A DNA stretch of 64,000 bases, from positions 2,556 through 66,555 of the forward strand of contig CAYNSH010000002.1 of assembly GCA_964399775.1 (NCBI GenBank), written 5' to 3'. Under the pieces are notes generated by a model. It worked only from the letters and a program-made list of their open reading frames with translations. It did not search any database and was not told where the DNA came from. Below, one piece after another: positions 10,139-64,000 of this stretch. The stretch is from an uncultured Verrucomicrobiota bacterium (GTDB lineage: Bacteria; Verrucomicrobiota; Kiritimatiellia; CAIQIC01; Lenti-01). The stretch's first letter is position 1, and the number at the start of each line of letters is the position of its first letter. The translations under genes were made by a program, and so were the position numbers.

Positions 10139-10358
10139 TCTTCATGCCTCTATCCGTGGCTCGAATCCGGTTCGCCTTTTGTTTCTGTGTCCTGTACCTT
10201 TTCTGTTTGGCCGTCTTCATCGGTTGGACCTGAGCCCCCCCACCGACCGCCTTGGACAAGGTATGGCCAAGGGCCGTTGTTCACCCAACTGCAAACGACG
10301 GTCGTATGCCCAAGCCCGGGCCGGGTAACTGCGGGCGCCGCGCCGGTTGTAGAGGGAG

Positions 10359-30342: not shown

Positions 30343-33300
30343 TTACTCCGGCATGACTTGGGTGGCGGTGGGGGCGTTGTCGGTATTGTAGCTGAGCGCT
30401 TCACCGGTGCCGTTGTACTCGAATAGCTTCACGTGGTAGGGCCATCCAGGAGTCAGACCGGTGATGGTGACGGAGTCTTCCGGGCCGAGATAGCATGCCT
30501 TGTTGGCCGGGAACGGGGTCAGGGGAGCCGCCCCTGGGAAGTAGGCATTGATGCCCGGAGGGACCATGCCATCCGTGGGGGTCCAATTCACGGCATACCC
30601 CTCGCGGACGATCAGCAGGCGTCCATCGCCGCCGCCGTTCTCCCACGTGACGGTCAGGGTGGACGGGTTGACGACGGTCAGGGATAGCGCCGTGGGTGGA
30701 GCGGTGGGCGGAGGCGACAGGATGGACCGCTTGGCGGCCGCGGGCTCACCGCCGATGAGGTAATTGAGGCTGTCGCCGCTGCCATTATACTCGAACACCT
30801 GGAAGTGATAGGTGTTGCCTTGCGTGAGGCCGCTGACGTTCACAGAACTGCCATTCCCCACATACACCACATAATTGCCGTTGCCCAGTTCGGGTCCCTG
30901 CCCGAAGGCCGCACTTGCATAGTAGTTGCTTCCTCCGATCGGATTGACATCCACCGGGCCGTTTTTCCGGGCCATCACGATGCGTCCGGCCCCGTTGCCG
31001 CTGGTCCACGACAGCGTCAATTGGTCTTGCCCGACGTTGCTGAACTGCAGGTTGGAGGCCTGGGTGGTCGGCAGGGATGCGCGGGTGGTCTGGCTGCCCT
31101 CCGGCGGAGTGCCGGTGGCGAGGTAGACGGTTTGCGCGCCGACCCCCTGATACTCGTAGATGACGAAGTGGTAGGTGGTCACGGGGGCCAGGCCGGACAA
31201 GGTGAAGCTGTCCCGATTTCCGTCGTATACGATCTTATGCCCGCCGCCCATATCGGTGGCGGTGGCAAAGTTGTTCTGGACGTAGGGAGCCGGGTCGAAT
31301 CCGTTCTCCGGAATCCAACTGACCGGCGAGCCCTGGCGAGCCACGACGATGCGGTTTTGGCCGTCGCCGCGATCCCAGTTCAGGCGCATGAAGGTATCGC
31401 CCACGAAGCTGAAGGACAGATTGGCGGACGGCAGGCGCAGCGCGGTGGAGGGTTCGATCCAGCGCGTGGGCAGGCTGTAGAAGTCGCGCGGGTGATAGCG
31501 CCAGGTCCAGTTGCCGGAGCCGGGCGGGTCTTGCTTGTCCGGCGGGGCCTGGTTGCGCGACACGATCACGATGACATCGTTGGGCTTGAAGTAGCCGGCG
31601 CCGACGAGCGCGTCATTGGCCACAAACCGGAAGACCCCGTTTTCAGCCGCATAGATGGTGCTGCCGGAGCGGGGGCTCTTGGTGGCCGTATTCCAGGTAT
31701 AGATATGGTCGGCAAAGTCCTTGTATCCCTTGGTCAGGCCGGCTTCGAGGAGCCCCATTTCGCCCGGGGTGGCGGCGACGGGCAGTCGCAGGGCGACCAG
31801 GTTGTAGGAGAGGATTTCGGGGGCGATTTCGACGCGGCCGGGCTGGTTGGGATCGAAGACGGCGGCGCGCCCGGTCTGGATGACCTGGCTGAAGCCATTG
31901 GTGGGCACCCGGAGGACGGGCGACCAGATCATGGCATCGAGTTGGAGCGGCCCGCCGGTGCTGGGATCGGTTTGATCGATATCTTGGGCGGTGGTGTGCC
32001 GGTAGTATTCCGGCAGGGGATCCGGCAGGGTGATGGAGAAGCCGCGGTTGAAGAAGTCCTCCGACTGGACGACATCGGTGACATCGATGCCGCCCGCCTT
32101 CAGCCACTTGTTATCGGTGGTGAGGTAGTAGGCCTCGCCGAGGAGGGCATTGACGCCCGGGTTGTAGAATTCGACCACGGTGCCGCCGCTGTCCGGCATG
32201 GCGGAGGTCCCGCCGGGGAAGACATTGGTTCCGCCGAAGACCGCGGCAAAGGTGTTGGTATAGGGAACGCCATGCAGCGCCACGTAGTTGTGGCCCCGGG
32301 ACAGGATGACGTTATGGAGGGCATAGACCTCCTCCGTGACCATGGGCCGCTGGGGCTTGCCATCCACTTCGCGCAGCCACCGATCCTTGTAGGATGCGCG
32401 GTAGAACCGCATCTGGCCGCGGGTGCGATGCTGCCCACCGTCATCCACGAACCAGTTGGTCTGGATGGTGGCGACCTTCAGCCAGGTGCTGTCGGGCGTT
32501 TCCTGGAAGCGGGGGGCATCCCAATAGATCAGGTCGTATTCGCGGGAAACGGTCCCGATGCCATCCTTCTGGCCGGCGGCGATCCACCCCATGGCCACGG
32601 CGTTGTCGGCGTCCGTGTGCGTGAAGGCTTCATGTTCCCCGAAGGCCTCCTGGGCCTTGGCCTTGGCGACCACCCAGCCGCTGGTGATGGCAAAGCGGAT
32701 GGTATTGTTGGTGGCCCAGCCATGGACATTGGCAGACCCTTCGTTGCCGGCGGCGTCGACGCCGACAATGACCACGGCGTATTCCTGGTCGAAGTCCAGG
32801 TCGTAGAGCCGGATGGTGTCCTGGCTCATATCCGACAAGGCATCATAATAGGTCGGATTTGCGGAGGGATCCGTGATGGACGAGCCCCTCATGACGCTGG
32901 GCCAATTCGTGTAATGCCCGGTGGCGATGAAGTTCGTGAAGATGAATGCGCTGCCGGAGCCCACGCCCGGGTCGCCTTCCGGCACATCCATGCCGTCGTA
33001 GGTGCCGTAGTAGATCTTATAGCTGCCCCATGGCGACAGGACGTCGCGATCGGTGCTGACCTTGGTGGGATGGTTGTCGTGCCCCGGATCGTCCGGACCA
33101 ACGCCCTCGGTGCTCCATTCCAGATCGAACTGGGTGGTGGGGTCATCGACGGTGTCGGTGGTGACGGAGAGCGGTTGGCTGGCGATTCCCACCGCGGTCG
33201 GCGGGGTGACATCGTAGGCGATGTAGAACGGCTTGGCCGGGCCGGCGAGCCGGTCGCCGGCGCGGTTGTTGTCGGCATCGACCGCGAAGAGGTATTGCGG

Positions 33301-36300
33301 AATGAGCCCCTGATTTTCCACATCGGCCACGAAGCGCATCGAGGGCATGTTGGCGCCGACGTCGACGGACAGGCGCAGGGCATCCCAATAGGTTTCGCTG
33401 CCGCCGCCGCTGATCAGGGAGATCTTCAAGACCTCGACGGAGCCGTCGCCGATGGACTGGCCGCCCTGGAAGCCGAACGAGAAGTCGTCAAAGACGTGCC
33501 AGTCGGTATCTTCCTCGGCGATCTCGCCGAACTTGTTGACGGCGACGCCCACATGGGCCATGACGGCGCCGGCCGGGGCGACCAGATCCGTCAGTTGCGC
33601 CAAAGTGAAGTCCTGGTCGGTGGTAATGCCGGCCGTGGCCACGTAGCCGATCTTGTCCTCATCCTGATAGCCGCCGGCGACGCCATCGGCATCGAACCAC
33701 TTGACTTCGAGGAACGACTGGGAGTTATCCAGGTCGACCGTGCGGATGTAGATCGAGGCCTGATAGGTTTCGCCTTCGGAAACGGCGATCAGCTTGTACA
33801 ACCCGTGCCAGGGGCCGCTTTCGGAATCGACATCGATCACGGCGCCATACGAGCCCGAGCGAACGTCGTACTCATGGCTGCTGATGCGGTATCCCGACCC
33901 GAACAGCTCCCATCCGGAGAGGTCGCCGGTCTCGAAGCCGGCATTGACGCCGGCCGCGACCGGATCAAGCCCGAAGGCCGTCCAGCCCCCGCCCGTCGCC
34001 GGCAGACTCAGATCCTGGGTGGCCAAAACCGTTTCCGGGTCGTCGGCGGCAAAGGCTTCGATGCGGAAGGTCGCGCCATCGCTGGAGCGGTACCAACCGT
34101 TCACGCCGACGAGCGGGGCCTCCTCTTCCACGTTGCGGAACTCAAGGAGTTGATAGGCCAGGCCGCCGCTGGTCTGCTTGAGGCTGTTAGTGCCTTCGCG
34201 GACGAGGGCGGGATTATCCTTCAAGTATTGGATGGAGCTGTTGGATTCCAGGGTCCAAGACAGGCCGTCGCCGAGCATTTCGAAGCCATAGTTGGCCAAG
34301 GCGCCTTCGGTGGCCGCCACGGCGAACGGCCGGCCGATTTTGGCTCGGTTGCTGTTGCTGAGGCTGTCCACATTGACCGCGGACACGCGGTATTCGCCAA
34401 TGCCGCTGGCGCCGCGTTGCTTCTCGCTGAGGGACTCATCGCCCACGGGATCCTCGGCCAATTCGCTGAAGTTGATAATGAACACCGGCTCGTTGGTCCA
34501 GGTGACGGACAAGCGGTCGGGGGCGGTTTCCGGAACGGGGACATCATTGACGTAGATCGTGCCGACCTCGGTGGGCGGCGTCATATCGTTGTCCACCACA
34601 TAGAACGACAGATCGGCTCGGACCTGGAGATCGTCATCGGTGCGGTCGTCATCGGCATCCCACACGCTGGCATGGCCGCGATACTCACCCAGCATCAGGT
34701 TGGTATAGGTCGGGGTTGGAAGGTTGGCATAGAAGACGCCTTCCTCTTCCGTCTGGGCATCGCCGCATTCAATTTCCGCTTCAAAGTTGAACGGTTTGTC
34801 CGTCACGAACGGGTGGCCCTGCGGAGTGCTGAGCGAGAACATCGGGCGCTTGGCCTCATCGTCGGCGTTCGGGCCGCGGATGCCGCTGCCGGCATCCCAT
34901 GTGCTGCCCCGGAGCTGGAAGGCGCCGCTGGCGAATTCCTCGTCGGTCACTTCGGTGACGCCTTCGTCGCCGGTTTCACCCTGGTACATGGTCAGGCCGT
35001 AGACCGACCAACTCACGCCGATATGCGGCGCGCCGTAGGGATGCAGGCGGATTTGGGTCTCCACCCCGGCATCCAGCGTGAAGGCGTTGGCGCCGGACAG
35101 GCTGATGTTCATGTTGTACCAGGTGCCCGTATTGATGGTTCCGCCTGTGAAGTAATGCGGACCGGATACCTGGACCTGCTCGCCGCCGACGAACTTGCGG
35201 ACGTAGAAGTGGGTTGGGCCCTCGACATTCCCCACCCGCGTCTGGAACGTGATGTTGGTGATGGCCGCATCGGCTTCCGGGGTCAGTTCCACGTGGTAGA
35301 ACTTGCTGTCCCACTGCCAGCCGGTCTGTCGCACCGCGTACTGGCCCGGGGCCTTCTCTTCAAACCGTGGCACGCTGAAGGTGCCCGCCGTGGTCAGGCA
35401 TTGCATGGCCGACACCTCGACGCTGGAATCGGCGCGGGTGGGCAGCAGCGATTGGGTATCCGTGTAGAGCCACTGGGCGATGATGCCGCTGCGCGGCCGC
35501 ATGGTCGCGAGAGTCAACTTCGGCCGCTCGGTGTCGTTATCGATGATCCGCAACTGGCCGAGGTGGCCGTAGAGCCACGCTTCATCATCCGGCCGATCGG
35601 CGTCGGCGTCGGGCACATCCACGGTCAAGGGAATGCCGGCGCCGGTCTGCGAGGCGATGACCAGTTCGGTCAGTTCCTCCCGCGAGAGGGACACATCCCA
35701 CCACAGGGCGGACTCCGGATCCTTGCCGTCATCGATCAGGCGCTCGGCGGTCTTGGCGGCGTTCAACTCACCCAATCGCGCCCCCATCTTCATGGTGGCC
35801 TGGTCGACTTGCAAGCCGCTGTGCGTATCGTACACATTGCCGCGCATCCGCAGCTTGTAATCCGAAGCGGCGATGTCGCTGTCATAGACCAGGAATTCCT
35901 CGGGATAGCCGGTCAACTGGATGTTGTCCATCCGGTAGTAGCCGCTGTCGGCATTGTAGTTCGAAAACTCGAAACGCAGGTACAACTTGGAGATCCCCCG
36001 CGGGATGACCTTGCTCAGTTCCAGGAAGCGGACGGTCCATACATTCCCGATATTCGGTTTCCAGGCCGGCCATTCCCCGGCGGCGGCGAACGAGTCCTCC
36101 GCGCCGGTCTGGGACCACAGCACCCGGGCGTTATTGAAGCCGTTGGCCCCGCCGTTTTCGGCCCAGGAGAAGATCAGCTCATCGGCCGCCACCAGGTCCA
36201 ACTCGAACTGGATCCAGGCCAGATTGCCTTCGCCAAAGCCCCACGTGCCAACGTCGCGCATGTAGATTTCACCTCGGGCGAACTGATCATAGGCGCCGAA

Positions 36301-57300: not shown

Positions 57301-60300
57301 GGCGTCGCCCTGCGCATTCGGCGTGAACGCCAGGTCAATCCGCGTCGCGTTCACGGTCGTCGCCGTGAACGTCGCCGGCGGCAGCGGACGGCCCAGCCGC
57401 GTCGTCACTTCCTCGACCGCCGTATTGGCGCTCTCGCAGCCCCCGTCGCCCACCGAGCGCACCCGGAAGTAGTACGTCGTGTTCTCGTCGAGCCCTTCGA
57501 TCAACTGGCTCGTCCCCGACTCAACCAGCAAGCCGTCGTACCCCGGCACGATCCCCCCGCCCGGATACGGCGTCAGCCGGATGTCGTCGATGTTGAGCTG
57601 CCGGTTGTCAGTCCCGCTCTCCGTCGCCCGCTTGATCCGAACCCGGACATCACCTTCGACGTTGACGACTTCGGAGAAGGTCTGCACGTCAGCGCTTGCC
57701 GGCGCCGTGAAGTCCGAACCGACTTGCACCCAGGTCGAGCCGTTGTTGGTACTGATCTGCACCATCCAGTCCACCTGAGTGGCCGTGCCATACCGGCGAT
57801 ATTGGAAGGAAAGGGTTCCGAGCCCGTTGGTGTAATTCTCCAGCATCGTCATGGAGGAGGTGCCGTACCCGCGCATGCGGACCGAGCGGCTTCCGTTCTT
57901 CCAGTCGTCCGCAATCGTCCCGATCAATGCCTCGGTAAGATCCCAGTCCAGCCCGCTGAGATTCACCGTGGCGGAGGCATAGGCGGCCTTGGTCTCTCCG
58001 GTTCCCTCGAAGTCCACGAAATAATCCGCCGGAGCTTCCGTGAACTGGTCATCCGTGCTGACATCGATCCGGTAGGCGGCGGCGCCGGCGGCGGCCGTCC
58101 ACGTCGCGGTGAAGTCGGTGGCATTGGTCTCGCTGGCATGCAGCCCGGTGGGGGCCGCCGGCGTGGTGGTCCAGTCGTCGTCTTCCAGGCCGGTGACGGA
58201 ATACAGCGCCCCGTCGTACGACCACGCCTTGTAGTAGTAGCGCGTACAGGACAGCAGGCCGGAGTGGGTCTGCGGCGAAGCACCGCCCACATAGACCAGC
58301 GTGCCGCCGGCGAACGCTTCGCCCACGTCCGGGGGAGCGCCCGACGGCGTGCCGAACGTCCCGGTCTCGTTGTACACGATCACCACGTTGTTCTCGGCGG
58401 CGTTGCGGGTGAACGCCAGCGTCATCGAGGATACACTGGCCGGCGTCACCGAGAACGCCGCTGGGGCGTCCGGCGCCGACATATCCGTCGTCACGTCTTC
58501 GGTTGTCGAATTTGCGCTGACACAGCCGCCATCGCCCACCGCCCGCACCCGGAAGTAGTACGTTGTATCTTCGTCCAACCCCTCGACCAGCTGGCTTGTG
58601 CCGGACTCGACCAGGAGATTCTCGTAGCCGTCCACGAAGGAGGGGGCCAACGCTGAGCCGGTCAGGTTGATGTCATCGATACGGAACGCAGGGCCCGAGG
58701 CAGCCGTGTTAAGGAATCGAATCCGCAAGTTGCTGCCCGCCATGCCGTCGGGAATGCTGTTGGTTCGGTAATGCCAAGTTGCGGTTCCAGTCCCCGTGGG
58801 CAGTTCGACGTCGCCGCAGGATACCCAGTCCGTCCCGTTGGTGCTCGCCTGGATGGACATGGAACTGCCATCTTCTGTAGTAGTGCTTTTGTATATCCCG
58901 TAATACAGCTTCATGTTGGTGAACCCAACTGAATCAATGCCGGAGATAATGAACGTTTTGTCCCCCCCCGTTGTGATGAAGGCATTGTTACCACCGGATG
59001 CGCCAGTGTATCCGGAAGAATGGGTATTGTTGCGAATATCGCCGGTACCGCTCATCGTCAGATCTGTGTTGGCGAAACCATCGTTGGATTCATGAGTGGC
59101 AATCGCCGTCGTACTGCCAACGCCATCGGCCCCCATGGTCTCCACTTCGTCAAATATATTATGCGTGCTTGAGACGCCGAACGTCTCGCTCTCACTCACA
59201 TCCAGCCGGTAAGCCGCAGCGCCAGAAACGGCGGTCCATGTGGCGGTGAATTCGTCCGTGCCGACATCGATGGCTTCCAGCCCGGTCGGGGCCGCCGGGG
59301 TGGCGGTAATTGCGTCGTCCGAGAGCGGCTCCGAATAGGCGGTTCCGGCGATGGACCACGCCCGGTAGTAGTAGCGCGTGCAGGACAGCAGGCCCGTGTG
59401 CTCGTAGCTGTCGCCGGTGCCGTTGTAGATCAGCGTGCCGCCCGCAAAGGGTTCGCCCACGGCGGGGGGGGCACCGGAAGGCGCCTCGAAGTCGTCCGGA
59501 TCCAAGGCAAAGGCGATCACCACGTTGCGCTGCGAGGCATTGGTCGCAAACGCCAGGTCGATGCGCGTCGCGCTGATCGGCGTCGCAGAGAATTCCGCCG
59601 GCGGGTCCACGATCGTTGTCACGCTTTCCGTGTCTGAGTTGCCGCTCGTACACCAGTCTGTCACCGCCCGTACACGGTAGAAGTATTCTGTGCCCTCCTC
59701 CAGCCCCGTGACCTCTTGGCTCGTACCCGAGGACACCAGGAGGTTCTCATAGCCATCGAGGAAAGAGGGTGCCATCGGAAGTCCCGAAAGGCGCACGTCG
59801 TCAATGCGGCCGGCAATTGTCCCGGACTTGACCCAGCGCAGGCTGAGGTTGGCCGATCCTGTGGCTCCTGCCGGGACAGACAGAGGACCCACCAGATACC
59901 ATCCCGCTCCGGCCGAAGACGCCGGCATATTGCTGATCGTGATGGTATTCCAAGTGGACCCGGAGTTCGTCGACCACTCCAAGACGTAGGTCATCGGATC
60001 TGTGTCTACGCCGCCTTCTTTTCGATAACCGAAGCTCAGCAACAGATCCGCATACCCCCGCGAATCGATTCCGGAAATGCTGAATCCGCGTTCACCGGCC
60101 GTCGCGGTGAAGAAGACGTTGGCCCCGCCGGATGCACCGGTGTAGGTGTCGGACACGCTGGTCTGGCGAATGTCCGCCGGATTGGCCGCGCCGCCATCGC
60201 CCATGGTGTAGCTGTTGTTGTCGAATCCGTCGTTGCCCTCGTGGGTGGAAATCGCCGTGGTGCCCCCCACGGTTCCCATCGATTCCGTGAAAAGGTCTTC

Positions 60301-63300
60301 CCTCGTCCCCGCGGCCATGAACGTCTCGTATTTGCTCACATCCAGCCGGTAGCCGGTGGCGCCGTCGAGGGCGTCCCAGTTGGCGGTGAAGCTGGTGCCG
60401 CCGACATCGGTGGCGGCCTGGATTACGGGAACGTCGTCAAAACAGTCGGCTTCGAATTCCTCTTCCTGGCCGTAGCCGGTACCTTCACTGTTGATCGCGT
60501 ACGCGCGCACATAATAGGTGCGGCCGGGGGTCAGGCTGCCCATGAAGTTGGTGAAGGTGCCCATGCCGTCGCCCACCACGCTCTTGTTGGGACTGTCGGT
60601 GTCGGGATTCGGGCTGGTGCTCCAGACCACGCCGCGTTCGGTCACGGTGGCGTTGCCGTCGTCAGTCACCTCACCGCCGCCCTTGGCCGACGTCGGCGTG
60701 ATTTCCGTCACTTCGTCGGTGATGACCGTGGGCACCGACAGCGCCAGCGGGGTGAAGATCAGGTCGAGGCTGCCGTCTTCGATGCTGAACGTGCCGCCGC
60801 CCAGGTCGTGATCAAAGCCGGCGGCATTGACCGCGAAACGCTCCGCGTTGAAGCCGGAGACAGTGCCCGCCATGATCGTCCAGCGGTAGGGCGTACGGTT
60901 GTCAAAGCCCGTGGAGCTGCCGTGCAGGTAGATGGTGAAGGTGCCCGAGCCGTTGACGGTGATGGTGCCGGAGGCATCCAGCAGGTCCCAATCCGTGCCT
61001 TCGGTGCCATCCACGTCGTACATGTCCACGCGCAGGTCGCCGCCCGCCTGCAGCGTCACGGCCCCGGCGTTCAGGGTGCCGCGCCCGCCGACGGTGTTGC
61101 CCGGATCCACCAGTCCGCCGATGATCAAGTCGCCGACCGTGCCGTTGCCCATCAGCGTCGCGCCGGAAGAAACCGTCACGTCCGAATCCTCCAGCGAGCC
61201 GCTGACCAGCAGCGTCCCGGCGCTGACGGTCGTATCGCCGCTCATGCTGCTCGTGCCGGACAGGGTCAGCGTGCCCGCGCCCAGCTTAGTCAGCGTGCCC
61301 GTCCCGGAAATCACTCCGGCGTAGGTCGAGGCGTCGGAGCGGTTGAAGACCAGGGCCGCGTTGTTGACGATGTTGCCGGAAATGATGCCGCTGGTGCCGC
61401 CCGCGCCGACCTGCAAGGTGCCCGCGCTGATCGTCGTGCCGCCGCTGTAGTCATTCGCCCCGGCGATGATGACCGTGCCGTCGCCGGTCTTGGTGACGCT
61501 GCCCGTGCCCGTAAGTTTTTCCGTGCCATCGGCCACGGTCAGCGTGGCGCTGGCCGGCGTCGTCAGGATCAACGCCTTGTTCAGCGTGATGGTCGCATCC
61601 AGCGTGGCGGTCCCGGCTTCGTTCATCCCGATCGTGCGCGTGCCGTCGCCGGTCACCACGGTCACGTCCGTCACCAGTTCCTTGGTGTCGGCCACGTACA
61701 ACGCCACGTTGTTGGCCGTGGTGTTGTAGCCCAGCACGATTTCCGCATCGCCCAGCGCCGTGGAGGTGCCCAGCTTCAGCGAACCGTTTTCGATCAGGGT
61801 TTCGCTCCGGTAGGTGGCGTCGCCCGCCATCGTGATGAGGCCCGCCCCGAGCTTGTGGATGCCGCCATAACCCGACAGCGAGCCCAGAATGGTCACCGGT
61901 TCCGCGTTGTTCAGCCGCAGATAGTAGCCCGGAGCCGATCCGCCGGCGTCAATCGTCACGCCGCCTTCCAGCGTGATGGTCCCCGAGCCGTGGTTGAAGT
62001 TGAACTGGCGAGTGCCGGGGGTTTCCAGCCCGCCATCGTCGAAGAACCCGGCCGCGATGCTCACATCGTAGGTGTCCGCCACGCTGAAATTCAAGACCGC
62101 GCTCTGGTCCACCTGGTCCGCATTGTCCGTGGTGCCCAACTGGTAAATCGTGCCCTCGGTGAACGAGGCGTTGGGGCCGATCGTCGCCGTGCCGGAATCC
62201 TGGAAGATATTGGCCTCGATCGAGCCGTCGAACGTCGGCGAGCCGCTGCCGCGCAGCACCAGCCCGCGGGTGCCGGGGTTGATGATGTCGCGCGAGAACA
62301 GGACCGCGTTGACGATTTCCAGCGCCCGGTTGTCGTCGTCGTTGAAGTCCAGGTCGATGTTACCCGAGATCGTGAAATCGCCGGTTTCCGTGTTGGCGAT
62401 GCGCGTCACGTAGGTGCCGCCGCCGTCCTCGCCCAGCAGATAAATGTCGCCGGATATCGTGGCGTTGCCCGTTCCGATCTTCTCGATGGAGGCCACGGCG
62501 TCGGCCAGCAGCGGCCGCGCCACGATGTCGTTGACCAGCGTCAACCCGCTGGCGATCTGCAGCGTGGCATCCCCCGCCCCGACGGCATCGCTCGAGAGAT
62601 AGATGTCCCCCGTGCCCGCCGCACCCGCATGATTCAGCGTCAGCGTGCCGCGATCCACGTAGAAATGCCCGTCAAACGTGTTGGCCCCGCCCAAGACCAG
62701 TTTGCCGGGCTGGTTCTTGACGAGGTAGTAGCTCTCCGCGCCGTCGGTGATCACGCCGTTGTAGGTCAGCGTCTTGGCATCCGCCACCGCCAGATAGGCC
62801 CAGCCCAGCAGCGTGAGCCCGCGGTTGGCGCTCATCGTGAAGTCGTCCGTCGCCACCAGCGCCGTCCCTTCCGACAGCTTCAGGTGGCTGCCGATCGCCG
62901 ACTCGGGCACCGCGCCCAGCGAACCGTCCGCCGCGACCTGCAGCGTGCCGCCCTGGATCTCCGTGCCCAGGCTGTAGGTGTTGCCCGCGTGGTTCAGCGT
63001 GATGGTTCCCGTGCCCAGCTTCAACAGCACGTTCGGGCTCGGCGTGTCCGGGCAGTGCGGATTCGTGCCGTCCGTGATCTTGCCGTAGATCGTCCGCGTG
63101 CCGTTGTCGCCGCCGAACGCCACATAGCCCAGGTTCGTCACCGCCGTCTCCTGCTTCCAGTAGGCGTTCTTGTTGCCCTTGTTGTCACCGTCGCATTCGC
63201 TGTAGTCGTTGTTGTAGTAGATGGAGTAGCCATCAATCCGGTCGTTCTCGCCCGGCGTTCCGCTCATCGTCCGGTCGTACTTCGGATCCTGCCCCACGAT

Positions 63301-63990
63301 GTTTACCGTGTACTCGCGGCTCGACAGGATGTGGTACTCCATCGTGATGGTCGTTCCGCAGGGCCGGATGCCCGACCAGCTCGGGCTCCCGTCGGCATCC
63401 GTCACGTACAGATCGCCGTATTCGTTGCCGCACTCGAGATAGCTGCGGGTGTTGCTGTGGCGGTTGGCCCACGAACCCGTCGAGGCCCCGTCGTTCAGCG
63501 ACATGCCCAGAATGCCGTACGGCGACCAGCCGTACACGCTGATGCGGAACCGATCGCCCGGTTCCAGCGCCCGCAGATCGCCACCGCCGTCCCCTTCGGT
63601 CCGGAACTGCCGCCAGCCCACCACCTGCATGTCGCCAGCCCCGCCATTTTGGTTGGCCCACATCAACAGCTCATCCGACCCGTTGTTGTCCCACCCCGCC
63701 GCGTCGCTGGCCCACATCGTGTAATAGCCCGATTGCTGGACAAAGGCCACCTCGTCCGGCGTGCAGGTCAGTTCCCCCGTCTCCCGGCTGCCGGTCAGGG
63801 GCGTGCCGCCTGTATAGTAGTTGATAGAGGACCCGGTGCCGTTGTACTCGAACACCGTCACGTAATAGGTCGTCTCCGGCGTTAGTCCCGACAGGGTGAA
63901 GCTGCTGCCGGCCCCGTCGTAGCAGATCTTGTTGCCGTCGGACTGGACATCCGCGCTCGAGAAATCCCCGTTCACGCCCGTGGGCGCCAC
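30343..63990 (-). CDS. Giant cell-surface adhesin-like protein: more than 11,215 aa in the window, 5'-truncated by the window edge so the gene continues upstream. It carries autotransporter-associated beta-strand (PATR) repeats, many Fn3-like modules, lamin-tail-like domains, and repeated beta-sandwich plus Fn3 modules.
   Basis: It is a single uninterrupted 33.6-kb ORF. PATR-type repeats include KLGAGTLTLSGTSSMSGDTTVSAGTL and GGTTISAGTLQVG. Fn3-like repeats include TYYVRAYAxNxxGxxYG and YHFxVFEYNGxG. LTD-like segments include FFTEYVEGSSNNKAIEIYNGTG and FGEFGEGNNWDKYVELYNATG. The stop is TAA at 30343-30345. Confidence 0.9.
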   Translation of the reverse strand: MAPTGVNGDFSSADVQSDGNKICYDGAGSSFTLSGLTPETTYYVTVFEYNGTGSSINYYTGGTPLTGSRETGELTCTPDEVAFVQQSGYYTMWASDAAGWDNNGSDELLMWANQNGGAGDMQVVGWRQFRTEGDGGGDLRALEPGDRFRISVYGWSPYGILGMSLNDGASTGSWANRHSNTRSYLECGNEYGDLYVTDADGSPSWSGIRPCGTTITMEYHILSSREYTVNIVGQDPKYDRTMSGTPGENDRIDGYSIYYNNDYSECDGDNKGNKNAYWKQETAVTNLGYVAFGGDNGTRTIYGKITDGTNPHCPDTPSPNVLLKLGTGTITLNHAGNTYSLGTEIQGGTLQVAADGSLGAVPESAIGSHLKLSEGTALVATDDFTMSANRGLTLLGWAYLAVADAKTLTYNGVITDGAESYYLVKNQPGKLVLGGANTFDGHFYVDRGTLTLNHAGAAGTGDIYLSSDAVGAGDATLQIASGLTLVNDIVARPLLADAVASIEKIGTGNATISGDIYLLGEDGGGTYVTRIANTETGDFTISGNIDLDFNDDDNRALEIVNAVLFSRDIINPGTRGLVLRGSGSPTFDGSIEANIFQDSGTATIGPNASFTEGTIYQLGTTDNADQVDQSAVLNFSVADTYDVSIAAGFFDDGGLETPGTRQFNFNHGSGTITLEGGVTIDAGGSAPGYYLRLNNAEPVTILGSLSGYGGIHKLGAGLITMAGDATYRSETLIENGSLKLGTSTALGDAEIVLGYNTTANNVALYVADTKELVTDVTVVTGDGTRTIGMNEAGTATLDATITLNKALILTTPASATLTVADGTEKLTGTGSVTKTGDGTVIIAGANDYSGGTTISAGTLQVGAGGTSGIISGNIVNNAALVFNRSDASTYAGVISGTGTLTKLGAGTLTLSGTSSMSGDTTVSAGTLLVSGSLEDSDVTVSSGATLMGNGTVGDLIIGGLVDPGNTVGGRGTLNAGAVTLQAGGDLRVDMYDVDGTEGTDWDLLDASGTITVNGSGTFTIYLHGSSTGFDNRTPYRWTIMAGTVSGFNAERFAVNAAGFDHDLGGGTFSIEDGSLDLIFTPLALSVPTVITDEVTEITPTSAKGGGEVTDDGNATVTERGVVWSTSPNPDTDSPNKSVVGDGMGTFTNFMGSLTPGRTYYVRAYAINSEGTGYGQEEEFEADCFDDVPVIQAATDVGGTSFTANWDALDGATGYRLDVSKYETFMAAGTREDLFTESMGTVGGTTAISTHEGNDGFDNNSYTMGDGGAANPADIRQTSVSDTYTGASGGANVFFTATAGERGFSISGIDSRGYADLLLSFGYRKEGGVDTDPMTYVLEWSTNSGSTWNTITISNMPASSAGAGWYLVGPLSVPAGATGSANLSLRWVKSGTIAGRIDDVRLSGLPMAPSFLDGYENLLVSSGTSQEVTGLEEGTEYFYRVRAVTDWCTSGNSDTESVTTIVDPPAEFSATPISATRIDLAFATNASQRNVVIAFALDPDDFEAPSGAPPAVGEPFAGGTLIYNGTGDSYEHTGLLSCTRYYYRAWSIAGTAYSEPLSDDAITATPAAPTGLEAIDVGTDEFTATWTAVSGAAAYRLDVSESETFGVSSTHNIFDEVETMGADGVGSTTAIATHESNDGFANTDLTMSGTGDIRNNTHSSGYTGASGGNNAFITTGGDKTFIISGIDSVGFTNMKLYYGIYKSTTTEDGSSMSIQASTNGTDWVSCGDVELPTGTGTATWHYRTNSIPDGMAGSNLRIRFLNTAASGPAFRIDDINLTGSALAPSFVDGYENLLVESGTSQLVEGLDEDTTYYFRVRAVGDGGCVSANSTTEDVTTDMSAPDAPAAFSVTPASVSSMTLAFTRNAAENNVVIVYNETGTFGTPSGAPPDVGEAFAGGTLVYVGGASPQTHSGLLSCTRYYYKAWSYDGALYSVTGLEDDDWTTTPAAPTGLHASETNATDFTATWTAAAGAAAYRIDVSTDDQFTEAPADYFVDFEGTGETKAAYASATVNLSGLDWDLTEALIGTIADDWKNGSRSVRMRGYGTSSMTMLENYTNGLGTLSFQYRRYGTATQVDWMVQISTNNGSTWVQVGSDFTAPASADVQTFSEVVNVEGDVRVRIKRATESGTDNRQLNIDDIRLTPYPGGGIVPGYDGLLVESGTSQLIEGLDENTTYYFRVRSVGDGGCESANTAVEEVTTRLGRPLPPATFTATTVNATRIDLAFTPNAQGDAIVIVWALDPEDFVEPDGAPPAVGNAFAGGTLLYHDDTETGLQHTDLDSCTRYYYQAWSYDGALYSVTPLEDDALTATPATPTDLHASATNFVDFTAAWTASDGAASYQIDVSEYADFETELQDATIVGWNFDDSDVVADSGLSMNLARELSTTAGTTPGTITFSAGVSGQAASANGWDSGSGAKYYEVSFSTLGATDLTVSSVQRSSSTGPRDFKLQYKVGAGGTWTDVAGGGITVADNWTSGVLTDVSLPSACEDEDIVYLRWIMTSNLRLNGVDDVASTGTSRIDDIVVKGDAMVASFVDGYENRSVPGTSVSVTGLVENTTYYFRVRAVGDGECASASTATEEVTTRISTVAPPASFTATAVSVSQIDLAFEANALGHPVVIVFNTTGNDDFTAPEGAPPAVGQAFAGGTLIYNGTGVSHEHTGLDSCREYFYRAWSYFDTETLYSMPLSDSATTFTPAPPTGLHASETNYFDFTAEWDASTGAAAYRIDVSQTDTFTGGYGASTLLLLASNAATTAGAITNDWSGWDLFTGSGYVGMIKPTSVITSSPFSTMGLTNLTVDLRARTYGGTAAGTTNIVISISTNNGLDWAVIGTVAPWVNTLQVMPTVTNTTHLGYPETRIRWQVPGADNTRGVGVERLVVQGWQAGEYTSAFVDGYENRLVELPDTSVVVTGLTENTTYYFRVRAVGDGGCVSENTATEDVTTDTGSPLAPVWLVATKGTFTDHVRVTWENVADEDGYTVWRHTLDLPGSGVEIGTTTANETTYDDDTAVPGLVYYYWVTATNAIGSSPMSPSYMNDNLGYRRLLAPTGLEASDGISTNHVEITWTGVEGATDYRLYRNIDPDPALGALSDMGLRTSGYLDTTAIPGQLYWYWVMAEANTSSSTSDWSIVDTGYRKLAPPPNVQATYDVHADKIVVTWSDVVGETGYALWRNTVNSFDGASYVNTVGANTLTHDDFTPAAGVEMFYWVLATNSTSLSTSDPQANGALGRRLNPNLPVVTTADLGGITAGTANGGGNVLSQGASPVTERGVVWSVNPNPTIADDMDTHATGGLGAFTNLLSGLLANQFYYVRAYAVNDSGIVYGAQKSFQTTCFLTAVPTGLHANPTNGTDFTARWDALPGATHYFLDVSEYPSFVEGGSDDPVIFENFAGFTALGGSLDRSANLDEYLADAGWTGDRVFENAGEAKLGTTTVKGFLTTPELDLSANEGLATLTFDAREWDGDNTVVEIQVAPDGETFARSGELIALTGDMTPYAHAITNGTETTKVRIFAFGANPERFFLDNWKIMQITGDPSYLPGFSNLYVSGTSQFVDGLETNSLYYFRVRAAGVGDCLSRNSEPKEVETRDLSPLGPSNVQATDGDFDDKVQVTWDASSGATHYILFRNGDDDTFNEAMEVDIFTSATLLYDDTATVPGKLYWYWVVASNAYGANVSGHDEGYRRLPVVADVAATDGAYTDKVEVTWTGLAGGSGQTGYAIWRSFTSDPESAECIGEAAHDETSFDDDNGFPGQLYYYWVRATNSESASMGLWGTSDAGYRKLAVVAPLDASYNTYDDMVRLTWDDSEGETGYSIWRSTVDNYTLLDPETHLIRLVEADESGYDDDEAVTGVEYYYWVLATNDTSQSQSDFQVSGALGRRAQVPPTVFTLGISNNILGSAMGGGDVLDAGGSAVTVRGVVWNTTGSPTIADSSTQDGSGLGSYSSLISPTAGGETYYVRAYAQNEERIAYGQVVTFVAECMDELPTILPATEITANSFQANWESSDGAISYRLDVSTNETFLGDYEPNVAVYHNGTLGQGTGGEWTETELIQSAGYLGFRTNAAVLITPPMDFDASTSEVLSFRARIFGGGGNGDFRNRITVSISLNNGEEWTELGRRTPVNTTMTAMEPFDLSAYDGTQIRFKLETLLSSGGVGAGITDVAVTNILDPLGVFIPGYADRTVEGAYASSEVVTNLLPEVNYYYRVRAYGSEICTSGNSATEPVTTQPYMAVWDGGGGNSRHWTVPANWVGDEVPLTNSIVFFYQDINGISSAINLDGDQVVRGVRFTDNASANVNIRSNRLSIFGGGVLVASDSSGEHQISADVALMQNQGWTNASAADLALSGTLTGSGAVQKWGTGRIVLSGEDSTWSGVMTVREGALQVRSASALGSTGAGTVVADGATLEVNGAGAAVSFDVEPLTISGSGVSGGGALRFVQNNVTWRGPITLAADARIQAASNSPAATGAIDIGAHTLAVGVDAEATELRLGGALVGTRDAADEYAVIKDGPSRLQLTGNNPFLTGNFHFQEGEIRIGSATAVGQIGLLVFGNNTVMKSSSAADYDISRPVRLDGNVSFGEAATRTGSLTFGGNINLGGAMRTIAVSNPVTKWVEFVGNVSNGGLTKAGPGLLVLSGTSTYGGGTTVSGGTLEGTTDSLQGNILNNAWVVFRQTEDGTYAGSMSGYGTMTKDGLGSLTISGVNTFEGITIVNEGLLIMEGSSAQSAHLVTGGGALLGDGTIGDLTIDGIVHPGADFDEIGTLNVSNVYLSGNGILRIDMADITGVAGTDWDRLLSAGSITVDATAMNPFRIEMVGDLTGFDPQQPWSWKIMDAAEPYLTGFAREKFVVDVSGLTGAGLDGVAFVVTEYGGDLHIEYQMPGIEVQGLNEAVIANGEDTPSLAKGTDFGLTSVNLPFEQIFWVKNTGLGPLVLGEVDVTGGGGYFSVAEQPPPTIDPGELGAFTISFLSALTGTNTATVSIPNNVYGQTPYTFDLRAVAGISAPSNLFVSADLHEMVRLSWIRSETPVILLHRSGEDFTGSPEDGTEYSVGASVGGGTVIYKGLAENLDHEVAQNTTNFYAIHSVAGTGGDSVYSMGVTAYEAYTPTFPAGRILEPFSRTNSLTLNGVDRGQGWSGGWAVNDGTFTIGTNSLVAPLGYPMVGGNLAQSTVGDDEEARATRNFASTLTTDLYISWVMRVENPGAAPYAGIDVLGSGGTRLFRLGLPEGSATAGIQRLPGGNSSNTALTVEAGLDYTYVAKMVKSTKTVYLLRYATTNIIQPAATDEPALANWHAVYRMNDLASTDIYGLRLAAGGTTGPGTVKWDEIRVANNWTNLFDVGRQPVWDGEGNQQWFQARNWVGDQLPRQGVEVVVFYKTINRNPIHFNPNAARYDLLGLRFDERAHESVVIGFPGGTANSIMYLWEQGLEIQNSSGSHTIAIPHIRLHRDHEWKSTSTNVFTFATGIQGDAKVTKTGPGRIHLVGTGAAGIRNSFSNTLTIAEGVISIQEPWALGATSHETIVTPEGALELRPIVSTIYTNEPLTLSGWGIDDGGALRNVAFSNRWTGRITLADHARIRADADSVLTVTGGIDGMNGNQDLYLGSDGPINIVSNGILENLRHLIKDSASTVTLSAASAWVGTTYLSNGMFRTLLPESTSPTTPFRISEGAVFNLSNFDQTIGSLEDGDDDEPGRAGEVWLGSGWLTTGGNGSNTIWSGEISGTGGLHKRGLSTMIMAGTNIYSGLTTISNGILVVRGATPYSHHHVVAPGILMGTGPVGDLTVAGTVDPGDEIDDIDIFESGDVLLSGDGVMRVDMTSIEGEPGVDWDLLNSYGGITVQGNGTFTFRPAGSPVGFDSASNYAWRVMSGVSPIEGFAVNRFAVDTSLFSPTLDGGQFSVMADGNDLYLTFTTGGGIPVWDGGGADARWGTAANWVGDMVPSADKIHTFYVGLDSGANIQLQANQSVRGLRFNDQADTSLVFSGSRLTISEGGIAVDAGSAGAHTLACLIQLNEDQAWTNHSDAAFTVSGVISSPGAHPLRKTGMGKVILSANNSFNGGLFIDEGSLQLNSSTNAMGAGTLTVGTNATLELNGPFNWRPVTTYLYGTGTNGGGGIRQISAGLGEWRGNVVLGEDSRIAIPAGSFATHGNLQAGAHTLYITNTFSFTMQAGQITGTKTDDDGALHKSGAGALFLRGSTLEGSLTIAQGVVRLAEDLTDGGGALRMLNTAVLTASNNAERIVAKPVVIEGNVALSAAGTFSGHLQLTNTVDLSGAQRIVSVSNLVTMSGVVDNGGLTKTGPGTLTLSAENIHAGDTIVSAGALVVSGTSVDSFHRVFSGGTLRGAGSIGQLAISGTVDPGNTVGAAGTLNTKTVTLNDGGILRVDMPSADMTGTPGVDWDLLVSSGDIGVPADPGLFAIRLAGAGEGFNPGIKQSWKIMDAGESVLNFDEARFWVDTSLFAPPLYNGQFSVIHDDENEDLYLAFVPSVEDADFFEVESAGPTSMTLNFYLNGAGQDVVIVYNDTGVFSSPSGVPPDMGEDFAGGKVAYVGGGQPQQTHEGLTSCTRYYYRMFSYYDGRYSDGLDDDDMTDAPPAPVILGATAIGNTSFIANWEATTGATGYRLDVSSNAFFTGGGVGTSSAFLHQGFESAPADNWLIYSGSGFISSDNLPTDSPSNGRIRTGSYSWQRRSGSATLQLAQSSIDGFASRTVNVHIASISTNNTNGADAADVVRIYVALDGAAFSATPDITLAGNNNARWGFNATGVVATVAGTPVSVSAPQGGGPNLNNYATARISIPDSASTLAIKIEAVNDAAAEVWTIDDVQITGVAVASSFVDGYENLYVDGTSQLVEGLEQDVTYYYRVRAESDGGCVSANSETQPVITTEDPPSAPLNVTASDGTSTNHVELEWTDVLTETGYYLYRGTSDVFGEAEHIQTRGMNVTNALDTTAVPGQLYHYWIVATNQNGAGLPSDPDTGYRKLPVVTGVAATDEVHLDKVVVSWTDGPGETGYAIWSSLYPDPATAAWLGTVAADQTSFDDESAVPGWFYYYWVLATNSTSESTSDWSASAMGVRIPIDAPEVGSLRLDGREMVRASITANLAGDEMLVLHSTTGPILTHPGPHTNYTQGTTIGDATIVYKGPAPGFQEHVIFANTTNHYRFYSIQEYGDPVTWYYSDGLIFGTPLITMPYPENVYSETFSYTNVTLSVGSFTNKSGGHQWTGAWSLSTAGEGHGWTVQTNGVSGLPVFAETKSNYPTVVGNRAVLEANGTGHNAARRTITTTNSGTLFVGAVVAYKWHGTDKYMTIGLMNGNDTEIEFGKVYGRQNYFDIRRNNANGDVSMYEMKGWDETGGTDNWYWMVIKYDFDEGGGTAYAKCFYQGNDIPYNEPALNEWDAVWSGMGIEQFTAIELKGGSDDGWLGGAIWDEIRVSSIWPELIGQPGLIPTPPIIDFGEVESTLSSNITVWIANRGGDNVPLFIDNDPAITLDGLDAESFTFSPDRFPDMLTYLQSNSVSVTFWPTNVGPYEATLWVQNNSGVNPYPIQIVGTGVPTVSTNLPEVKTYEVGEGRWLTDAMVTSGVYSVAAEVFHVRGILSASYDILDPEGGYVVQDEPFSLWESADGMTVRLSDEIRTGHWPAPPSDAYLLQVTMMASNLIGATQTMYTADGVVTTPDLFFTEYVEGSSNNKAIEIYNGTGVGVVLTNYGIRFQANNGTGWGGYTELPDVILGPGGTFVIVHELAADEDLLARADWLNTAVCNFNGDDSIFLMKGLGEEVPIDAIGSSPSGGYFGENLTLRRRSFVTANAPVYNALEWETLPIDTFDGLGWHDMDGALGLPMWITVEDDDVDAPVISLVRVNGTAPTAGTPGPGILFWDIPAEGLPITWNIQDTGSGLLAASHHYSLRLGTDVVAAGYLNGSEDGDGQSEAISQSVDVPKASLGHGEYVLGLAGADYDLEWVGDSLSTSNQYFFRILAGEIEVEPTSLDFGQVGVGLTSNLTLTVHNHGNTALTISEFEFIGTGFAFFEADRADLVVPANDSAEVTISFMPVGGGTFNWTLVLHNDSANDPALTVPLSGNCYDPETMPPVIVDYVLEDFLSTPNVVTDHAGANGELLATFTIYQMVGMQPVGASFDLIYPDGSMAVEDVPLSLVGTVEIEGQTCHVFEGVPPPFYPATLGFYTARVTAVSANGIEMINEVNFQAVDSGIQTLTETFDSVANNSGSYLSGTVEDADWGTWTFTDALWNQTLYGTKAPTLRQAGTLVSPALDRGLTQISFDYRRPFSESGSYEVDVLVNGDVVGTVTDMPPDTTTVYSFLATGLDYSGEVVISIINRAPAGGPNTKRITIDNIAILTEDVDASQPMIFEMIDEDIEGPIHSGFNVDDAVFSTSDVEFGLTVTGLVLDVQSGVFAASNRWTLYSNEIAIASGFMTMDPDENGAGIGDEPAGLSALIEAEHLETDAYQFMFRIESTDYDVDRPLDWITTTNDYWFWVTTFINAPTEVVAEADGAEMVVMSWNKNGAPDVLVLWSHSPITVESLPPDTSFAVNDTYEGATVAYKGPWDGFEQVVPVASLNHYRLFGAAGNFYSQTYAEPVENPVRTLTYESGEIVDQFAYTNLFTLAQNNLATGQGWSGGWQGDTHKYMVDDTNLVHGISEYPEPAANKLQWIDTSSYEVDSAVITRKLAASRAGRTFIAFMMNYLYDGESKYVGLSLMSGIDADVEEVFFGKLYNQIRLAGFEVPGEHTATSAYELNPGHGNDFMIVGEWDPVTKTIRMWAFHPTQEIHQNYDPDTAIATYTDAGLSIGTITGIRLGAGSAAGTGGDDKIELGHVYFDEVRVGSTWDEVLNFVPPKVYDYEGGVDLEGVHWISDAQLSAADHSYDVAFSLYHRSGIAEAEFTLLDQEDPETELYAPRQELVADGMWGSRYRFTQTVTDRLHTNDVALGAYTTRVWVTSTSLKATNTIMIAESGGADNLFFGEFGEGNNWDKYVELYNATGRDIDLSEYLIGSQTDPSKKYTTWNFCRIALEPTILPHGDTLLILNGGRWGSVSNNETVNQAMLDVLDNAGRPYLFTSNWVLQVSGDDPVGLFHQSNTNQWIDVCGIGPDEEVAARYIMSRLSDAEVPRPYPYQVEPTQWDFRDWDGDRDTGYANFLSTAGVYDRDVGRGEIIRFFVYDDDTEPPRVGPASVVKVGPDAGPFEELNKEPGSTEVVLTAWSFTNFSSIAAASAPWPGSLFKDGPAITWNPSYTLQLINTNTSTGTKENSWFGAYDQFARGEIYMRDVGTWGFGEGNLAWIQFELDLVAADELIFSWAENGGANGFNNARVLWSQTGAEDSFAAAGEWPAWKPNIGNVWTVRFLELSKVIPRGISKLYLRFEFSNYNADSGYYRMDNIQLTGYPEEFLVYDSDIAASDYKLRMRGNVYDTHSGLQVDQATMKMGARLGELNAAKTAERLIDDGKDPESALWWDVSLSREELTELVIASQTGAGIPLTVDVPDADADRPDDEAWLYGHLGQLRIIDNDTERPKLTLATMRPRSGIIAQWLYTDTQSLLPTRADSSVEVSAMQCLTTAGTFSVPRFEEKAPGQYAVRQTGWQWDSKFYHVELTPEADAAITNITFQTRVGNVEGPTHFYVRKFVGGEQVQVSGPHYFTGGTINTGTWYNMNISLSGANAFTLDAGVETQIRLHPYGAPHIGVSWSVYGLTMYQGETGDEGVTEVTDEEFASGAFQLRGSTWDAGSGIRGPNADDEAKRPMFSLSTPQGHPFVTDKPFNFEAEIECGDAQTEEEGVFYANLPTPTYTNLMLGEYRGHASVWDADDDRTDDDLQVRADLSFYVVDNDMTPPTEVGTIYVNDVPVPETAPDRLSVTWTNEPVFIINFSELAEDPVGDESLSEKQRGASGIGEYRVSAVNVDSLSNSNRAKIGRPFAVAATEGALANYGFEMLGDGLSWTLESNSSIQYLKDNPALVREGTNSLKQTSGGLAYQLLEFRNVEEEAPLVGVNGWYRSSDGATFRIEAFAADDPETVLATQDLSLPATGGGWTAFGLDPVAAGVNAGFETGDLSGWELFGSGYRISSHEYDVRSGSYGAVIDVDSESGPWHGLYKLIAVSEGETYQASIYIRTVDLDNSQSFLEVKWFDADGVAGGYQDEDKIGYVATAGITTDQDFTLAQLTDLVAPAGAVMAHVGVAVNKFGEIAEEDTDWHVFDDFSFGFQGGQSIGDGSVEVLKISLISGGGSETYWDALRLSVDVGANMPSMRFVADVENQGLIPQYLFAVDADNNRAGDRLAGPAKPFYIAYDVTPPTAVGIASQPLSVTTDTVDDPTTQFDLEWSTEGVGPDDPGHDNHPTKVSTDRDVLSPWGSYKIYYGTYDGMDVPEGDPGVGSGSAFIFTNFIATGHYTNWPSVMRGSSITDPSANPTYYDALSDMSQDTIRLYDLDFDQEYAVVIVGVDAAGNEGSANVHGWATNNTIRFAITSGWVVAKAKAQEAFGEHEAFTHTDADNAVAMGWIAAGQKDGIGTVSREYDLIYWDAPRFQETPDSTWLKVATIQTNWFVDDGGQHRTRGQMRFYRASYKDRWLREVDGKPQRPMVTEEVYALHNVILSRGHNYVALHGVPYTNTFAAVFGGTNVFPGGTSAMPDSGGTVVEFYNPGVNALLGEAYYLTTDNKWLKAGGIDVTDVVQSEDFFNRGFSITLPDPLPEYYRHTTAQDIDQTDPSTGGPLQLDAMIWSPVLRVPTNGFSQVIQTGRAAVFDPNQPGRVEIAPEILSYNLVALRLPVAATPGEMGLLEAGLTKGYKDFADHIYTWNTATKSPRSGSTIYAAENGVFRFVANDALVGAGYFKPNDVIVIVSRNQAPPDKQDPPGSGNWTWRYHPRDFYSLPTRWIEPSTALRLPSANLSFSFVGDTFMRLNWDRGDGQNRIVVARQGSPVSWIPENGFDPAPYVQNNFATATDMGGGHKIVYDGNRDSFTLSGLAPVTTYHFVIYEYQGVGAQTVYLATGTPPEGSQTTRASLPTTQASNLQFSNVGQDQLTLSWTSGNGAGRIVMARKNGPVDVNPIGGSNYYASAAFGQGPELGNGNYVVYVGNGSSVNVSGLTQGNTYHFQVFEYNGSGDSLNYLIGGEPAAAKRSILSPPPTAPPTALSLTVVNPSTLTVTWENGGGDGRLLIVREGYAVNWTPTDGMVPPGINAYFPGAAPLTPFPANKACYLGPEDSVTITGLTPGWPYHVKLFEYNGTGEALSYNTDNAPTATQVMPE

Positions 63991-64000
63991 GCCATCGGTC

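Follow-up and report, generated by a model that had tools for sequence, protein, structure and literature searches.

Giant surface proteins of the Planctomycetota-Verrucomicrobiota-Chlamydiota (PVC) bacteria are recognized and functionally uncharacterized. Proteins of at least 10,000 amino acids (aa) are "frequently detected" in Verrucomicrobiota and related phyla, according to the available passages of West-Roberts et al. (2023; 10.1101/2023.11.21.568195), and a further source on giant PVC proteins is PMC12057145. The same passages describe giants of Omnitrophota that exceed 30,000 aa, have C39/S8 peptidase N-termini, and adjoin genes for type II secretion, pilins, and PilZ. Here, we analyzed a stretch of 64,000 nucleotides (the window; contig CAYNSH010000002.1 of assembly GCA_964399775.1) from an uncultured Verrucomicrobiota bacterium of the Kiritimatiellia, about half of which is occupied by part of a single gene for a protein of 13,359 aa. 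The protein is best read as a mosaic cell-surface adhesion fibre composed of PATR, Fn3, and lamin-tail domains, with a conserved C-terminal module as its base, and we give this reading a probability of roughly 0.55. This locus offers a handle on the question of how diderm bacteria export and retain proteins of megadalton size when type I and type V machinery is lacking.

One gene for a 13,359-residue protein

A minus-strand frame with its stop codon at 30343-30345 is open to base 63999 at the edge of the window (30343..63999), which corresponds to 11,218 codons plus the stop, and its 5' end continues out of the window. About 303 stops would be expected by chance from the base composition of the window, giving a probability of finding none of ~1e-133. 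The GC content at third codon positions (GC3) was 0.78-0.90 in all 22 successive 500-codon blocks of this frame, and this uniformity indicates that one frame is coding throughout the giant open reading frame (ORF). An earlier reading of the DNA, made from the letters and a list of ORFs (the sequence-only reading), had proposed a stop-free ORF truncated at its 5' end by the window edge, and both points were borne out. In ENA assembly ERZ27252308, the gene is called as a single 13,359-residue product lying wholly inside contig k141_187532, which was traced by an exact look-up of the neighbouring convergent gene and measures 99,493 bp, and of which the window represents positions 2642-66641; locus L001, from the same contig, is identical to window positions 18472-40199. 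The start codon is located ~6.4 kb past the window edge, so that ~2,141 aa are out of the window, and the GTG listed as the start of the ORF, at 63990, is merely the earliest potential start within it. The whole protein has a mass of ~1.4 MDa. The in-window part (1.19 MDa) is very acidic, with an isoelectric point (pI) of 4.26, and contains 35 Cys. Throughout, residues are numbered for the in-window part, with aa 1 at nt 63999-63997, and all features of the gene given below are on the minus strand. The peptide strings quoted in the sequence-only reading were all found in the translation, namely GTLTLSG at 909, TISAGTLQV at 856, NAALVFNRSD at 880, TATWTA at 1585 and 1964, AAYRLDVS at 1595, FVDGYEN four times, TTYYFRVRAVGDGGC twice, YYYxAWSYDG twice, and the C-terminal string at aa 11191.

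The repeats inside the gene are old. At the DNA level, the best of them are 81% identical over 43 nt and 79% identical over 210 nt, and the protein copies of the internal repeats are 25-66% identical. Repeats so diverged at the DNA level make a repeat collapse in the assembly unlikely. In addition, a second contig (assembly ERZ27252296, locus L002) carries an identical stretch coding for the last 718 aa (3' 2.1 kb) and the same downstream gene. An orthologue from another metagenome, on contig LSQX01074829.1 (locus L004), is colinear with the giant gene at 42-51% identity. Its residues 2115-3330, 4150-5256, and 5402-5792 correspond, in the same sequence, to aa 1-1267, 2515-3632, and 3642-4031, and its ORF runs without a break for at least 5,792 codons, as far as the retrieved locus extends. 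Dozens of relatives measure 3.5-7.9 thousand aa (kaa). The ORF is a single, intact, and real gene for a giant protein, and, with at least 10,000 codons in one frame in a genome of PVC lineage, it falls among the giant PVC genes. Its close relatives are all from Kiritimatiellia/Verrucomicrobiota metagenome-assembled genomes (MAGs).

At two further loci, L007 (JAXGNL010000002.1) and L008 (JGI Ga0645779_03653), homologous giant genes appear to be broken into many same-strand ORFs. The genes amt, glnB, and glnA are also split on L008, and the breaks are therefore attributed to frameshift-prone assembly and not to real gene boundaries. In MAGs of this type, the lengths of the family genes are underestimated. 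The giant protein itself was absent from the homologue-search results (all matches at most 2,100 aa) and from the search of representative proteins (longest match 7,945 aa). Scanning the genome contigs for exact matches to the last 50 nt of the window returned none, and an exact look-up of the 718-aa fragment of L002 in the protein collection found no entry.

Opposite the giant gene, there are three long plus-strand ORFs at 30805-36885 (2,026 aa), 43090-47082 (1,330 aa), and 59716-63885 (1,389 aa). They were rejected as genes, as they are without the GC1/GC2/GC3 pattern of coding sequence and are the usual shadow ORFs of a gene of 65% GC. The GC skew of the plus strand flips sign at ~30000, exactly at the giant minus-strand gene, from about -0.1/-0.2 to about +0.05/+0.1, and from ~46 kb onward it is back near zero or slightly negative.

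The conserved C-terminal module and the mosaic before it

The part of the protein that defines a family is the module at aa 10181-10850 (31450..33459), which consists of an Fn3-like domain, a second beta-sandwich ending in RFYRASYKDRW, and a terminal domain of ~300 aa (aa 10552-10850; 31450..32346) that ends in ...WTWRYHPRDFYSLPTRWIEP and gave a confident AlphaFold2 model. When aa 9651-10850 were searched with phmmer against 1.84e9 representative proteins, 245 proteins were matched at E ≤ 1e-3 and 83 at E ≤ 1e-30, with E values down to 0. In dozens of proteins of 1.3-7.9 kaa, the longest being 7,945 aa, the match to aa ~10181-10850 stops 2-3 residues short of the C-terminus, and the usual family ending is ...W-T-W-T-Y-x-P-x-x-F-Y-x-L-P-T-R-W-M-G-x. 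A locus scan with one genome per GTDB species yielded 67 loci, with ~30 named MAG isolates. The MAG names are of Verrucomicrobiota/Kiritimatiellia type or evidently loose labels, and the record titles point to anaerobic reactors and digesters, rumen, biofilm, and similar habitats. Several MAGs carry three family loci each, and where the flank is long enough, an open frame of 2,000 aa or more precedes the domain at nearly all loci. In 58 of the 67 loci, the stop lies within 0-4 aa of the end of the terminal domain (...PTRWMGx), and in 8 of the 67 one extra Fn3 domain follows. The giant gene is the extreme case, in which the module is followed by three Fn3 domains (aa 10861-11210; 30370..31419) that add 368 aa, so that a free C-terminus immediately behind the motif cannot be a strict requirement. 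The protein does end in Fn3 repeats, as had been stated, but its end is not featureless, since the conserved module lies just upstream of them.

All the family motifs are present in the giant protein (RFYRASYKDRW, SEEVYAxHNVxLSxGxNFVALHGxPYTNTF, FFxRGFSIxLP, WxPILQVPTN, PNDVIVIVSRN, and WTWTYxPxxFYxLPTRWM). Its terminal domain is 38-61% identical to those of 28 family loci, and it keeps all 28 invariant columns of the alignment. Only the last ~650-670 aa are universal in the family, and the rest is variable and mosaic; PATR repeats, for example, occur in a minority of members. A subfamily (P0121, P0125, P0127, P0130, and P0141) also shares aa ~8333-10016 at 33-46% identity, which brings its conserved part to ~2,500 aa in all. 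The expectation that a protein of this size would be a species-specific orphan was thus not borne out, given the colinear orthologue at L004 and a multi-copy Kiritimatiellia family with a C-terminal module of ~670 aa.

Neither the module nor its terminal domain matched any entry in Pfam or NCBIfam, a PDB profile search with the module found nothing, and no fold relatives of the terminal-domain model were found in the PDB or BFVD libraries. A domain-only profile searched against 5.8 billion proteins retrieved 25 family members only, all annotated as "hypothetical protein [Kiritimatiellia]" and all without Pfam domains, and no distant annotated relatives. There are no invariant or near-invariant Cys or His residues in the terminal domain in either of two alignments (A3 and A4). 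No description of the Kiritimatiellia family or its C-terminal module was found in the literature, and no domain database holds the module.

The remainder of the in-window protein is modular and almost wholly beta-structured. Parsing with Pfam confirmed the PATR, Fn3, and two lamin-tail domains that had been proposed from the sequence. The abundance of Fn3 also stood, but not the "dozens" of copies, as there are ~20 canonical Fn3 domains and several divergent Fn3/Ig-like ones. The frame enters the window within an Fn3 domain that the edge truncates (aa 1-67; 63799..63999), which resembles the three C-terminal Fn3 domains at 45-48% identity. The following domain of ~255 aa (aa 75-330; 63010..63777) has no Pfam match and holds 5 of the 35 Cys, and a 350-aa query containing it was 65% identical to the L004 orthologue. 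Next is PATR beta-helix block A (aa ~331-1085; 60745..63009), which has strong PATR copies at 426, 714, 835, and 903, matches TIGR02601, and resembles in sequence the chain of PDB 8e7f, an extracellular serine protease. Five tandem modules of ~375 aa (aa ~1090-2940; 55180..60732) are 35-66% identical to one another, and each contains one canonical Fn3 domain (at 1376, 1750, 2110, 2493, and 2845) together with divergent Fn3-like or beta-sandwich parts. Their period is ~360-380 aa (spacing 1074-1146 nt), and the ~470-aa repeat proposed in the sequence-only reading was not recovered.

Further arrays of Fn3 domains (aa 2845-3222, 3493-3866, and 4123-4214; 51358..55467), identified by a Pfam/Fn3 scan and separated by beta-rich segments, lead to PATR beta-helix blocks B, C, and D (aa 4220-4870, 5330-5890, and 5890-6470; 44590..51342), with PATR copies at 4343, 4611, 4675, 5707, 6019, and 6273. 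Altogether, there are 10 strong PATR copies in the four blocks (PF12951, E 1.6e-42 and 2.2e-19; TIGR02601, 100 bits). Between blocks B and C there are an Ig-like domain and a repeat module of ~360 aa (aa 4985-5345), which occurs three times in the protein, starting at aa 4985, 7052, and 8466. These ~360-aa modules end in ...WDEIRVS or FDEVRVG and may be LamG/ConA-like, for which Pfam gave no confirmation even at E ≤ 1. Three Fn3 domains (aa 6773-7046; 42862..43683) were identified by the Fn3 scan before the second of these modules, followed by lamin-tail domain 1 (aa 7645-7755; 40735..41067; PF00932, E 1e-11) and by an Ig-like domain of HYDIN/ASH type matched in Pfam (aa 7950-8044; 39868..40152). 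The subfamily-conserved core (aa ~8333-10016; 33952..39003) contains the last of the three ~360-aa modules (8466-8840) and, after it, lamin-tail domain 2 (8947-9025). Apart from this lamin-tail domain, there was no Pfam or PDB match in aa ~8050-10000, and a PDB sequence search with aa 7001-10200 found nothing. A CBM_4_9-like beta-sandwich (aa 10017-10177; 33469..33951), an insertion relative to P0121 and P0125, separates the core from the C-terminal module. Many proteins of 180-400 aa match this CBM_4_9-like domain at 34-47% identity.

Export, anchoring, and competing explanations

The C-terminal 1,552 aa were searched with Pfam at E ≤ 0.01 and with NCBIfam for known sorting signals. No 12-stranded autotransporter beta-barrel (PF03797/TIGR01414) was found at the C-terminus, and neither database matched a type IX secretion system (T9SS) C-terminal domain (CTD) of ~80-100 aa (Por_Secre_tail type). 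There was also no match to PEP-CTERM (PF07589), the sole PEP tripeptide being internal at aa 8627. LPxTG-like strings are limited to one internal LPATG, which is at aa 9999, lies ~1,200 aa before the C-terminus, and has no hydrophobic segment. The in-window protein has no transmembrane (TM) segment (maximum Kyte-Doolittle 19-mer 1.56), and its 11,218 aa contain zero matches to the RTX nonapeptide pattern GG.G.D. The absence of a barrel, PEP-CTERM, LPXTG tail, or T9SS tail, which the sequence-only reading had pointed out, is in agreement with these results. With a gap of just 143 bp between the stop codon and the convergent neighbour, no extra domain is hidden downstream.

As the N-terminus of the giant protein is beyond the window edge, we deduced it from L004. 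The L004 protein has a typical Sec signal peptide at its start, MRGGAMRRGVAAVVAGGLLAGAGTAMG|QTT; a Reelin-B-like beta-sandwich and then Fn3 domains come next, and no TPS (two-partner secretion) or other secretion domain was detected in its N-terminal 2,100 aa. Most full-length family representatives also have an N-terminal hydrophobic signal-like segment. Judging from these signal peptides, the giant protein is probably exported by Sec as well. Genes for Omp85/TpsB, ATP-binding cassette (ABC) transporters, membrane fusion proteins (MFP), and TolC were found neither in the 30 kb on the 3' side of the giant gene nor in the 4 kb upstream of the L004 gene. The region upstream of the L004 gene (L004 1-3900) contains one HEPN ORF and three ORFs for nucleotidyltransferases of MNT type, apparently a cluster of HEPN/MNT toxin-antitoxin pairs.

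Taken together, we propose that Sec would carry the protein across the inner membrane and that it would then reach the surface by a route other than type V, type I, PEP-CTERM/exosortase, sortase, or T9SS, because the defining features of these are absent from the in-window protein. The PATR beta-helix blocks, Fn3/Ig arrays, ~360-375-aa modules, lamin-tail domains, and CBM-like domain, which make up a long N-terminal and middle part that varies between lineages, may form an elongated fibre for binding particles, glycans, or other cells, as the domain types suggest. The tandem Fn3/Ig-like domains typical of the stalks of fibrillar adhesins are present (~20 canonical Fn3 and divergent copies), the CBM_4_9-like, lamin-tail, and PATR domains are candidate binding modules, and the C-terminal module is the candidate anchor. 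This module (~670 aa, or ~2,500 aa in the subfamily) would be the cell-proximal base, holding the fibre on the envelope or being recognized for export or assembly. Such a role is suggested by the combination of a variable passenger, a constant C-terminal end, and several paralogues per genome, since C-terminal tags that stay constant while their passengers vary, and that occur several times in a genome, typically serve in sorting or anchoring. An adhesin-like surface protein, as the sequence-only reading had it, is still the best reading, although both the adhesive function and the surface location are predictions from domain types.

A more specific version of this proposal is that the terminal domain and the two beta-sandwiches before it constitute a new C-terminal sorting/anchoring module of a Kiritimatiellia clade, which would serve several megadalton, otherwise unrelated passengers per genome through an outer-membrane export or attachment pathway. 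We put this forward tentatively and regard it as doubtful in its full form. If the module is an anchor or export tag, it would represent a new sorting route and provide a simple sequence marker for the Kiritimatiellia surface proteome; otherwise, the gene encodes just another giant adhesin-like protein of the PVC bacteria.

Several observations weigh against an adhesion fibre held by its C-terminal module. The module is followed by one to three Fn3 domains in 9 of 68 cases (the giant gene included), which argues against a classical terminal sorting signal, and no secretion or anchoring partner gene was found to be conserved downstream of 60 family loci. The predicted fold of the terminal domain offers no functional clue. 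The giant protein's own N-terminus is out of the window, and its signal peptide is predicted by analogy with L004; its expression is presumed, and its surface location and binding are predicted from sequence. Moreover, the conserved end could equally be a functional tip rather than an anchor.

This last possibility is the main rival. The C-terminal module would then be the functional business end, a ligand-binding or weakly papain-like/NlpC-P60-like effector acting on prey or a substrate, and the protein would either be set free or be retained through its N-terminal part, a model put forward for the predatory Omnitrophota giants. The Fn3 domains after the module show that it need not be terminal, and giant PVC proteins have been interpreted as weapons for predation or cell-wall degradation (PMC12057145, and in the passages available of 10.1101/2023.11.21.568195). 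However, the terminal domain is without a conserved Cys or His in both alignments, and Pfam detected no catalytic or hydrolase domain anywhere in the in-window protein. A constant C-terminus with a variable N-terminus is also more typical of sorting and anchoring modules. We consider a functional tip at the C-terminus unlikely, and an adhesion fibre with the module as its base is preferred.

Secretion by known machineries is much less probable still. The size and acidity of the protein, its tandem beta-sandwich extender repeats, and the lack of any other recognized sorting signal would fit a type I-secreted giant adhesin of the RTX/LapA/SiiE/MpIBP kind, exported C-terminus first through ABC-MFP-TolC and retained by an N-terminal plug. 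We regard this as very improbable, since GGxGxD nonapeptides are entirely lacking, L004 and most family members have Sec-type signal peptides, and no type I genes lie in the regions surveyed around the two genes. Slightly less probable again is a type V passenger, either an autotransporter or a two-partner protein, as the PATR domains might suggest. The 10 strong PATR/TIGR02601 repeats, the best named matches ("autotransporter-associated beta strand repeat" proteins), and the similarity to PDB 8e7f are consistent with it, but the PF03797 barrel, a TPS domain in the L004 N-terminal region, and a nearby Omp85/TpsB gene are all missing, and most family members are without PATR. Type Va secretion is largely refuted. 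The least probable explanation is an assembly artefact, a chimera or a collapsed repeat fusing several genes into one ORF, which a short-read MEGAHIT-style assembly (k141_ contig name) and the divided homologues at L007 and L008 might suggest but which, like the frameshifts and the separate upstream protein that had also been envisaged, is disfavoured by the single 13,359-aa call, the uniform GC3 in one frame, the divergence of the repeats, the agreement with L002, the colinear unbroken orthologue at L004, the dozens of long relatives, and the split housekeeping genes beside the split homologues.

Genomic surroundings and comparison with known systems

The convergent neighbour 143 bp from the stop codon of the giant gene (28472-30199) codes for a protein with NTP_transferase and APH domains, and a scan of the gap for terminators and promoters found nothing. 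The flanking 30 kb on the 3' side contain genes for glutamate synthase, isoamylase, a ComM-like Mg-chelatase, a chloride channel, and glycosyltransferases, and no secretion machinery. Downstream of those family loci whose conserved neighbours were identified, synteny is confined to orthologous groups and involves housekeeping genes only (ribosomal protein S1, an HflX-like GTPase, a PHP-domain protein, and an amylase-like protein). Elsewhere on the 3' side, two tandem minus-strand ORFs of 215 and 210 aa (24353-25000 and 24987-25619), overlapping by 14 nt, both match PF14424 (Toxin-deaminase, BURPS668_1122 family) with E values of 7e-25 and 1e-29. Just upstream of the pair is a minus-strand ORF with a weak Peptidase_MA_2 match (25712-27064), and the region of the pair could be a polymorphic-toxin or immunity-type cassette. 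A plus-strand ORF of 470 aa (22396-23808) has GC3 of the coding type and no Pfam match.

The closest described counterparts are the giant PVC genes, which share with this one a length of at least 10,000 aa, a PVC lineage, richness in repeats, adhesion-type domains, and N-terminal signal peptides (here predicted from the relatives), as far as the available passages describe them. The Omnitrophota giants of those passages differ in their C39/S8 peptidase domains and in their genes for type II secretion, pilins, and PilZ, none of which was seen at this locus or L004. The size and general make-up of the protein are therefore not new. The C-terminal module is not mentioned in the passages of West-Roberts et al. 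(2023) that were available, and its family was not previously described in the literature found.

The similarities to the other systems are confined to individual features. Type Va autotransporters with PATR repeats include IcsA. Such proteins, represented among the database matches by ShdA (NF011847), EprS (NF051851), and PDB 8e7f, have PATR repeats (PF12951/TIGR02601) in common with the giant protein. However, the latter is ~10 times larger and without a C-terminal beta-barrel, its PATR repeats are distributed over four internal blocks, and most of its relatives in the C-terminal-module family have no PATR. The PEP-CTERM-tailed PATR proteins among the matches (P0006, P0009, and P0010, with PF07589; Verrucomicrobiota and related) come from the same broad lineage and also have PATR-rich secreted passengers, whereas the giant protein has neither a PEP motif, a TM helix, nor a basic tail and carries a globular module of ~670 aa instead. 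It resembles the type I RTX adhesins (LapA, SiiE, and MpIBP) in its megadalton size, its acidity, and its combination of tandem beta-sandwich extenders with binding modules, and differs from them in being without RTX repeats, in belonging to a family with Sec-type signals, and in having no type I secretion genes adjoining on its 3' side. The T9SS CTD, at ~80-100 aa, is far shorter than the Kiritimatiellia module of 300-670 aa, which is unrelated in sequence (no Pfam match), lacks known relatives in its fold, and does not always form the very end of the protein. The two have in common that one conserved C-terminal module is carried by many different large secreted proteins, several per genome. 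Thus, if the Kiritimatiellia module does act in sorting, it may be functionally like the T9SS CTD or PEP-CTERM while being structurally unrelated to both.

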